64,000 nt of DNA, from sequence record PV654517; one strand, written 5' to 3'. The position numbers and the translations under genes are program-made. Below are positions 11,792 to 12,189 of the stretch, one piece after another. This stretch comes from Escherichia phage vB_ECOLIGBLB0003. The notes below the pieces were generated by a model. It was not told where the DNA came from and searched no databases. It saw nothing but the letters and a program-made list of their open reading frames with translations. Within the stretch, counting starts at the first letter, position 1. Each line of letters opens with the position of its first letter.

Positions 11792-12189
11792 TATAAATTC
11801 TCTTTTAAATGAAAATGCAGGACTTATTGGCATTGCCTGCGCAAGCCCTCAAGGGGAACATAGGTTTTTGGATATTTAACGACCAGGATAACCATAAACC
11901 CGTCATCATACCTTATAGCTCTTATCTGTTGCACACCGTTAGCTTAAAGGTTCCGGGTTCGATTTCTCGAGGATAAGATATATACTGATGGATATATAGG
12001 CCTTGAGGCGTACTCCCGATTGGCCATCACCTCGGGGTAGCATGCACTTGCCGCTATAAGAATAACATTCAAGAGGTACACCGTAAAACTGCCGGGGTCT
12101 TAAAACTATAATGATTCGCAAATCATTAATCAGACAGTTCGACGGCTCCTCGATTTTAGCTCACACTAAGGCAGTGAATCTCCAATAAA

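Follow-up and report, generated by a model that had tools for sequence, protein, structure and literature searches.

The locus and the rIII-30.9 spacer

Here, we report on the spacer between rIII and the homologue of T4 gene 30.9 in Escherichia phage vB_ECOLIGBLB0003 (PV654517), a Tequatrovirus (T4-like phage), of which a stretch of 64,000 nucleotides (nt), hereafter the window, was analyzed. Until now, this spacer has been annotated as empty or as spurious small open reading frames (ORFs). Comparison with relatives strongly supports the presence of a structured RNA, which we term M1, in its central part. The features of the locus are as follows:

12587-12922, minus strand: gene 31
12190-12438, minus strand: rIII
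11792-12189, minus strand, same direction as 31, rIII and 30.9: rIII-30.9 spacer of 398 nt with RNA structure modules
11910-12064, minus strand: 155-nt block holding M1 and its closing stem, without counterpart in T4 (2 nt there)
11914-12062, minus strand: M1 structured RNA, 149 nt (155 nt with flanks), matched by a covariance model
11615-11791, minus strand: homologue of T4 gene 30.9 (T4 gp30.9), encoding a basic protein of 58 amino acids (aa)

The initial annotation had described an ORF-poor gap between the two genes, and this gap is real. The only ORFs in the 398 nt are a 60-aa ORF with a TTG start and a 45-aa ORF with a GTG start on the minus strand and a 55-aa ORF with an ATG start on the plus strand, all of them short and poorly started, and no frame is conserved. 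The equivalent spacer in T4 has a length of 244 nt, and across 38 gene-30.9 loci its length ranges from 120 to 507 nt. Small hypothetical proteins are annotated over the spacer in several T4-like database records. The plus-strand ORF at 11809-11976, the 49-aa T4-type form of which is annotated as a coding sequence in phage AV123, is probably spurious because it is interrupted by M1, which alters its C-terminus. An ArfA-like or other Pfam identity was sought for the gene 30.9 protein without a match.

Several long-range complementary 8-mers had also been pointed out. The pairs CCTCAAGG (11847-11854) with CCTTGAGG (12001-12008) and CTTATAGC (11912-11919) with GCTATAAG (12053-12060) are indeed located at these positions, and a third perfect inverted pair is present at 12109-12116 and 12121-12128. 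Three such pairs compare with an expectation of 1.31, and 18% of shuffled sequences reach this number. As the count is not above chance, the repeats alone prove nothing and gain meaning only through comparison with relatives.

M1 is an insertion relative to T4 and is widespread among T4-like phages

Comparison with T4, which had been suggested in the initial annotation, revealed identity of more than 99% over 11500-11909 and 12065-12500, while two bases replace positions 11910-12064, such that the 155-nt block is absent from T4. The T4-type spacer filled with these 155 nt was found in 179 phage records. A covariance-model search of the window returned a sole M1 copy at 11914-12062 on the minus strand (175.1 bits, E = 3e-37), and M1 likewise occupies one place per phage record. 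The 135-nt M1 core (11919-12053) occurs in 406 phage records and is nearly full length in 395 of them. According to their taxonomy lines, the carriers belong to Tequatrovirus, Jiaodavirus, Karamvirus, Marfavirus, Kanagawavirus and Kagamiyamavirus; JS10, VR5 and the Citrobacter phages Merlin and CF1 were recognized by phage name, and Serratia phage 4S completes the list. Core identity amounts to 91-100% for most copies and to 74-86% in the most distant ones (Serratia 4S, Aeromonas PS49, EcS1). Shigella phage SHFML-11 has an M1 region with 100% identity to that of the window. Across genera, cores that are 91-96% identical are embedded in flanks with only about 75-79% identity, as exemplified by Klebsiella phage Mineola (flanks 75-79%).

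Two further settings were encountered. One M1 copy with 85.6% identity resides in a 76-kb Grimontviridae phage (PKM.Lu.22.1) that is unrelated to T4, and about 20 records have a diverged paralogue at a second locus, with uvsW.1 on one side and the uvsY operon on the other. Carriers of this paralogue include Slopekvirus K41P2, Yersinia phage JC221 and Cronobacter phage GAP161. No M1 similarity was detected in 5,426 E. coli genomes or 72,556 plasmids, two pattern scans over 185,579 bacterial and archaeal genomes yielded zero matches, and the copies on 13 matching metagenome contigs resemble those of T4-like phages. M1 is confined to phages. A scan of viral contigs based on 16-mers alone additionally returned L025, L026, L032, L038-L040 and L042; these are chance matches in coding regions, none of which fits the covariance model.

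Half of the gene-30.9 loci (19/38), that of T4 included, lack M1, and some of these encode an identical 30.9 protein. M1 is thus dispensable: T4 does without it, its site is naturally empty or occupied by another allele in some phages, and one Klebsiella phage, vB_KpnM_17-11, has a broken copy. In the latter (L017, 1316-1419 and 1474-1586), the segment equivalent to 11919-11977 is inverted and lies about 90 nt away from the one equivalent to 11977-12053; this may be a knock-out that arose in nature or an error of assembly.

Compensatory substitutions support the M1 fold

The window copy and that of Mineola differ at only six positions of the core. Two pairs of these differences are compensatory within hairpins and one change turns a G-U into a G-C pair, and in Mineola the flanking 8-mer stem is exchanged for another complementary pair, TAAAC/GTTTA. 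We aligned 25 distinct M1 copies with MAFFT (alignment A1) and scored 38 pairs. Standard pairs accounted for 95.0% of the cells, and 26 of the 38 pairs had changed on both sides. The covariation score was 0.422 versus 0.171 ± 0.012 in shuffled alignments, with none of 500 shuffles reaching the observed value, and it did not exceed 0.082 when the partners were slid by 1-3 columns. An independent RNAalifold run on A1 gave the same helices together with the three base pairs (bp) of helix P2 (GGC/GCC) and two extra pairs in P5.

The covariance model built from A1 (effective sequence number 1.33) also picked up diverged copies, scoring 103 bits for L071 and 142 bits for L094. In a covariance-model alignment of 32 distinct copies with 45 pairs (A3), 96.7% of the cells were paired and double changes were seen at 34 of the 45 pairs, P2 and P5 included. 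The MAFFT result is the cleaner test because A3 is fitted to the model. Judged by the variety of pair types at each position and by the slid controls, the deduced fold is hardly in doubt, and the sequence comparisons strongly support M1 as a structured RNA, the helices of which are kept by compensatory substitutions beyond the level of the controls. A scan for additional covarying column pairs was dominated by phylogenetic correlation and gave nothing usable. A pseudoknot between GCAU in the P2 loop and GUGC in the joining region of P4 was considered and rejected as unsupported: both motifs are near-invariant, and the sole variant (L094, U to A) breaks the pairing.

Architecture of M1

The elements of the fold, given on the minus strand of the window, are as follows:

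12053-12060, minus strand: P1 5' strand, CUUAUAGC, pairs with 11912-11919
11912-11919, minus strand: P1 3' strand, GCUAUAAG, pairs with 12053-12060
12050-12052 with 11999-12001, minus strand: P2, GGC/GCC, from RNAalifold
12008-12041, minus strand: H1, long hairpin with a conserved bulged A and an AA bulge, apical hexaloop UGAUGG at 12024-12029
11979-11998, minus strand: H2, 7-bp hairpin, hexaloop CCAUCA at 11986-11991
11920-11978, minus strand: P4 domain, enclosing H3 and P5
11972-11978 with 11920-11926, minus strand: P4 stem, double changes in 6 of 7 pairs
11959-11970, minus strand: H3 hairpin, GAAA loop at 11963-11966, double changes in 4 of 4 pairs
11954-11958 with 11933-11938, minus strand: P5, conserved 15-nt loop, double changes in 3 of 5 pairs

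Double changes were found in all six counted pairs of P1 (TATAGC/GCTATA, TAAAC/GTTTA, GTAGTAG/CTACTA and others), in eight of ten outer and two of three inner pairs of H1 and in four of the seven pairs of H2, while P2 shows one compensatory change from C-G to U-A, in L071. The loop of H3 reads GAAA, GUAA or UAAA, corresponding to a GNRA-capped hairpin, and P5 is followed by the near-invariant UGUGCAACA within the P4 domain. In the M1 copy of EcS1 (L023, 1192-1349), about 11 nt are inserted into the P5 loop and repeat the CCUAUGGCC motif of the H1/P2 joint; the tolerance for this insertion points to solvent exposure of part of the loop.

Two of the complementarities noticed at the outset correspond to genuine, covarying helices, namely CTTATAGC/GCTATAAG to P1 and CTTATC/GATAAG to P4. 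Pairing of CCTCAAGG with CCTTGAGG, on the other hand, is coincidental. It is broken in MY02, Serratia 4S and PS49, and the two segments belong to different structures, CCTCAAGG to the separate hairpin M3 described below and CCTTGAGG to the P2/H1 joint of M1.

P1, P2, H2 and P4 form a four-way junction with zero unpaired linker nucleotides. The H1 loop, UGAUGG, is exactly complementary to the H2 loop, CCAUCA, over 6 bp, and at least six Watson-Crick pairs are retained in all 13 distinct loop combinations, which represent six sequence versions (UGAUGG/CCAUCA, CGAUGG/CCAUCG, CUAUGG/CCAUAG, CAAUGA/UCAUUG, UGCAUU/AAUGCA and UUGUAUU/AAUACAA); non-cognate combinations have a mean of 3.6 pairs. The two loops are thus predicted to engage in a kissing-loop tertiary contact, and the long P2-H1 arm, which contains a conserved internal loop and bulged adenosines, would therefore bend back beside H2. 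About 50 unpaired positions of M1 are invariant or nearly so, among them GGCAAGKGCAUG, GGCC, CCYGGAMCC and GCUAACRGUGUGCAAC.

The paired columns of M1 contain 76 G-U cells and a single A-C cell. As G-U cells outnumber A-C cells by far, the functional strand is the minus strand, the one that also encodes 31, rIII and 30.9. A conserved ORF was not found in M1: every one of 23 indel-free copies has at least one stop in each of the six frames, which speaks against a gene that is intact in relatives and frameshifted in the window. The 49-aa ORF of Mineola (Mineola_216) is closed by TGA in the window, and the U/C difference responsible is the very change that switches a G-U pair to G-C.

Further RNA modules in the spacer and exchange of cassettes

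Outside M1, the following modules were distinguished:

12160-12183, minus strand: M4, candidate degenerate small hairpin (GGUGAUUCGCUACC..AGUGC in relatives), from sequence comparison
12073-12151, minus strand: M5, irregular hairpin of about 80 nt, also present in T4; 25 pairs in RNAalifold, 7 of them compensatory
11863-11911, minus strand: M2, conserved motif GUAUGAUG-hairpin-CGUUAAAUAUCCAAAAACC, the hairpin being weakly supported (5 pairs, 2 covarying)
11842-11859, minus strand: M3, short hairpin GUUCCC-CUUGA-GGGCUUG, containing CCTCAAGG
11792-11841, minus strand: hairpin GCAGG...CCUGC followed by a U-rich tract and by ribosome-binding site and start of 30.9, read from the sequence

Of the options listed in the initial annotation, a structured non-coding RNA has strong support in the central 150 nt and moderate support in the flanking hairpins. 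The apical stem of M5, AAUGAUU-UGCG-AAUCAUU, is the third 8-mer pair (12109-12128). M3 has the general form GUWCCC-loop-GGGGCUUG and occurs in 14 sequence variants in which the stem is kept and the loop varies, with CCUC/GAGG as a compensatory change. The hairpin at 11792-11841 was not called in the terminator scan; it may represent a weak terminator or a translational hairpin. In the region 11792-11815 (minus strand) and its equivalent in L003, L020, L021 and L023, a small hairpin can form between the 30.9 Shine-Dalgarno sequence, which reads AAGAGAA in the window and UGGAAGA in other genera, and a conserved UUUUC or UCUCC further upstream. This suggests translational sequestration of 30.9.

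Across the 38 gene-30.9 loci, the modules are present in differing combinations and orders. M2 is located 3' of M1 in the window, whereas Jiaodavirus and Serratia phage 4S have the two in the opposite order. M1 itself is found on the 3' side of M5 (Tequatrovirus) or of M4 (Jiaodavirus); in L091-L093 (Citrobacter phage Merlin/CF1 type) it lies 12 nt past the rIII stop, and at other loci it may precede or follow M2 or M3. Three alleles were distinguished at the site between M5 (…CCTCTTGAATGT) and M2 (GGTATGATGACG…), which is empty in T4, filled with M1 in the window and occupied by an unrelated cassette of about 50 nt in other T4-like phages. This third allele (…ATTTTATACTATCACGCGTCAGAAAAAGGTTATCTGTCTAAGTCGTGGTT…) was seen at the 11909/11910-12064/12065 site in L058, L060, L064, L080, L083, L085 and L088. 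As it shares the left-flank sequence ATTTTATA with some M1 alleles, the site between M5 and M2 is a hot spot of cassette exchange, and M1 is one exchangeable cassette within this hot spot of RNA modules.

Parts of the spacer were also encountered in other phage families. The tRNA cluster of AV123 (Justusliebigvirus) contains, between tRNA-Gln and tRNA-Gly, a stretch with 97-98% identity to the T4-type spacer without M1 (L002, 2501-2848). The match covers window positions 11783-11909 plus 12065-12192 and 12177-12274, and the order is permuted there, a piece of the 3' end of rIII being attached to the spacer stretch. M5 and M2 were found with 81-93% identity in the tRNA gene region of a Vequintavirinae phage, on the tRNA strand and about 130 nt from tRNA-Met (L019, 1501-1635). 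Judging from such sequence matches, the RNA modules of the spacer move between phage families.

Transcription context and M1 at other loci

No promoter-like site was found inside 11792-12189, and the scan returned no terminator-like site between rIII and 30.9. A strong intrinsic terminator follows 30.9 (11611-11590, minus strand), and the T4 record X54536 lists middle and late promoters ahead of gene 31. Given these promoters, the terminator after 30.9 and the lack of an intervening one, M1 should be made within 31-rIII-30.9 transcripts. Weak Rfam matches to Atu_C8 and Phe_leader at 11576-11659 were dismissed, as they reflect nothing but the terminator of 30.9.

At the second locus, two phages carry the motif CATAAATA just before P1, 9-14 nt upstream of the conserved GGCAAGG. 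It differs at a single position from TATAAATA, the late-promoter consensus of T4. The M1 copy of the Grimontviridae phage has a sigma-70-like site across its 5' edge and an 8-bp intrinsic terminator 40 nt downstream. Weak as they are, these sites hint at stand-alone expression of M1. In the same phage, M1 lies between an SSB-like gene and a sigma-factor-like gene. The encoded proteins (L022, 548-1105 and 1346-2119) were named by eye from sequence; one looks like an SSB with an acidic tail ending in DDDCPF and the other like a sigma factor of the ECF type.

Downstream of the paralogue in Slopekvirus and JC221, no conserved ORF was recognized by eye. The paralogue is followed by about 200 nt of non-coding sequence (L024, 953-1186; L018, 1260-1480) conserved between K41P2 and JC221. 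This stretch, which includes GGCGUAnUCUUUUGCG…GGUGAUUGAUAA…ACCUUCGA, lacks a shared ORF, has a bidirectional terminator at its end and may constitute another structured RNA.

Relation to known RNAs

We compared M1 with Rfam 15 (4,227 families). Neither within 11792-12189 nor for 11900-12075 alone was a match obtained at E values of up to 10, the whole window contained no Rfam family at the gathering score, and the M1 paralogue gave only noise. T4 itself encodes two small structured RNAs of about 120-140 nt and unknown function, rnaC and rnaD (species 1 and 2 of the tRNA cluster). Like M1, these are encoded in a transcribed non-coding stretch and are presumably excised from a longer transcript. 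However, rnaC ends in a genuine tRNA-like T-arm, which M1 lacks, and T4 is devoid of M1. With filters switched off, the best match of the M1 model to T4 69800-73200 had 6.3 bits (E = 0.49) and was not located at rnaC/rnaD. By analogy, M1 may functionally resemble these orphan stable RNAs of T4.

Purine and lysine riboswitches are aptamers with a multi-helix junction locked by kissing loops. They share with M1 a junction closed by P1, adjacent arms held by loop-loop pairing, covarying stems and invariant unpaired nucleotides. M1 differs from the Rfam riboswitches in that it matches none of them in sequence or structure, has a junction without unpaired nucleotides and is followed by unrelated genes or none. 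ROOL and GOLLD RNAs are likewise phage-borne, strongly covarying and of unknown function. They are often found near tRNA genes, and the T4-type part of the spacer, too, occurs inside tRNA clusters of other phage families. Both are, however, several-fold larger than M1 and included in Rfam, and M1 matches neither.

Some features of M1 are reminiscent of tRNA: its four-way junction resembles a cloverleaf, the 3' strands of P4 and P1 are contiguous like T arm and acceptor stem, and GGTTCGATT is present. A T-loop-like sequence, GGTTCGATTTC, had caught attention in the initial annotation, and it does exist at 11956-11966 of the plus strand. Its resemblance to a T-loop is, however, coincidental. It is antisense to M1, its TCGA forms an arm of H3 and the rest is partly P5, and relatives have CCGA/TCGG or CTGA/TCAG. 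A tRNA-like element would need an unpaired invariant T-loop GTTCRANYC on the RNA-sense strand, whereas here the motif is base-paired on the wrong strand, as an arm of a covarying stem; we therefore discarded this candidate. Furthermore, the loop contact of M1 joins adjacent arms, and there is no CCA or discriminator context.

Small non-coding PeSL cassettes, in which a terminator-like stem-loop is directly followed by an early sigma-70 promoter (PMC4122927), are tied to modular shuffling between T4-like genomes (Arbiol et al., 2010, PMC2839356; Comeau et al., 2014, PMC4122927). M1 differs from them by the lack of a promoter and by its 150-nt multi-helix fold with a tertiary contact, and its classification as a PeSL cassette was ruled out by the absence of a promoter-like site within 11792-12189. 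A PeSL-like form exists downstream of 30.9, where at 11532-11611 (minus strand) the terminator is followed by the sigma-70-like sequence TTTACA-17-TAGTAT (11560-11532). The two PeSL papers do not cover the rIII-30.9 spacer, a survey of structured phage RNAs (PMC10690425) does not mention T4-like phages, and M1 core sequences were not found in print in the literature searched.

Possible function of M1 and alternative explanations

We assign a probability of roughly 80% to the interpretation that the spacer is a string of minus-strand RNA modules centred on M1, an autonomous RNA cassette that is absent from T4. On this reading, M1 would be produced by read-through from the gene 31/rIII promoters within the rIII-30.9 transcript, and from a promoter of its own at other loci. 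Insulated by P1, it would fold independently, and the folded RNA would bind a specific partner, either a small ligand or a protein. It would most likely serve as a trans-acting, dispensable accessory RNA for host takeover or counter-defence instead of being a dedicated regulator of 30.9. Given that M1 is a functional RNA, the chances that it acts in trans, binds a specific ligand or protein and plays an accessory role are about even. Action in trans is favoured because the fold and the invariant loops are kept in three unrelated contexts and no gene is found downstream at the second locus. A more tentative proposal is that M1 could represent the first known example of a novel kind of accessory RNA in phages, acting as an aptamer-like sensor or sponge or as a decoy for a host protein or defence factor, with the cassette being exchanged among T4-like phages and occasionally reaching other families.

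Several observations weigh against this interpretation. M1 sequences are closely related (effective number 1.33) and many of the compensatory changes are inherited and not independent, so that cell counts overstate the number of independent events. The stability of single-sequence folding is unremarkable (z = -1.69 for the minus and -0.95 for the plus strand). The promoter-like sites upstream of M1 copies outside rIII loci are weak matches, and the proposed function is wholly conjectural. M1 is positioned upstream of 30.9 in each of the T4-like rIII loci, and in the Grimontviridae phage it precedes a terminator and then a gene; both layouts would also fit a leader or riboswitch acting in cis.

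Such a role in cis, in which M1 would be a leader, a riboswitch-like aptamer or an antitermination RNA controlling the downstream gene (30.9), is the alternative to be considered most seriously, although we regard it as unlikely. M1 is found on the same strand upstream of 30.9 in all 19 M1-positive 30.9 loci, and its multi-helix junction, kissing-locked arms, invariant unpaired nucleotides and variable P1 are typical of aptamers. In PKM.Lu.22.1, promoter-like site, M1 and intrinsic terminator succeed one another and a gene starts about 28 nt further on, and the Shine-Dalgarno sequence of 30.9 apparently lies within a small hairpin. These points are countered by the existence of phages with an identical 30.9 protein that lack M1 and by the distance between M1 and 30.9, which varies widely with M2, M3 or M4 intervening. 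In Slopekvirus and JC221, the paralogue leads into non-coding sequence and a bidirectional terminator without a conserved ORF. Moreover, the downstream genes are unrelated across the three contexts, and the conserved unpaired nucleotides are situated away from P1. We consider it improbable that M1 is a self-cleaving ribozyme or a processing signal that cuts the polycistronic 31-rIII-30.9 transcript. Small ribozymes are often present in transcribed spacers of phage genomes, M1 is positioned between two cistrons, and its four-way junction, the tertiary contact between its loops and the many invariant nucleotides would suit a ribozyme; yet no Rfam ribozyme family matched even at E values of up to 10, M1 is large for a self-cleaver and has about 50 invariant or near-invariant unpaired positions, no cleavage-site signature could be identified, and T4 processes the same transcript in the absence of M1.

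The initial annotation had further proposed a decayed mobile element or a replication origin. The former would make M1 selfish or decaying DNA, resembling a miniature inverted-repeat transposable element or the remnant of another mobile element, without any function at the RNA level and with the complementary 8-mers as terminal inverted repeats. Presence/absence polymorphism at a fixed site with sharp edges, the inverted repeat formed by the ends of M1 and the occurrence in an unrelated phage family are in line with this idea, and M1 does behave as an exchangeable cassette. It is, however, intact and conserved, and the sequences of its end stem differ between lineages with complementarity being kept, which amounts to covariation and not to conserved terminal repeats. 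Target-site duplications or direct repeats at the M1 junctions and a transposase-like partner were not found, each genome has a single copy, the great majority of internal substitutions are of the compensatory type, and even the loop-loop contact covaries. Hence, this explanation is very improbable. Least likely of all, and given hardly any credence here, is that the region harbours a replication origin, a gene for a tRNA-like RNA, or a protein gene that is short or frameshifted; the T-loop resemblance of GGTTCGATTTC and the small hypothetical proteins annotated here in some records could be invoked in its favour. ARAGORN found zero tRNA or tmRNA genes on both strands of the whole window, and the T-loop look-alike is antisense and inside a covarying stem. 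With 46.3% G+C, M1 exceeds the window average of 35.7%, and no skew change was seen at 11.8-12.2 kb, in disagreement with an origin. A protein gene is opposed by the closure of all six frames in the 23 indel-free copies.

Significance

T4-like phages are among the best-studied viruses, and many carriers of M1 are Klebsiella, E. coli, Shigella and Yersinia phages that were isolated for therapy. Our findings strongly support M1 as a previously uncatalogued family of structured RNA with a covarying tertiary contact, which is present as a dispensable cassette in about 400 sequenced T4-like phages. In view of its four-way junction, its covarying kissing loops and about 50 invariant or near-invariant unpaired nucleotides, M1 almost certainly does something specific, and RNAs with a signature of this kind have often proved to be riboswitches, ribozymes or protein-binding RNAs. 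Because M1 is dispensable, its function is directly testable by allele swaps. The rIII-30.9 spacer of these phages emerges as a hot spot that shuffles RNA modules instead of genes.

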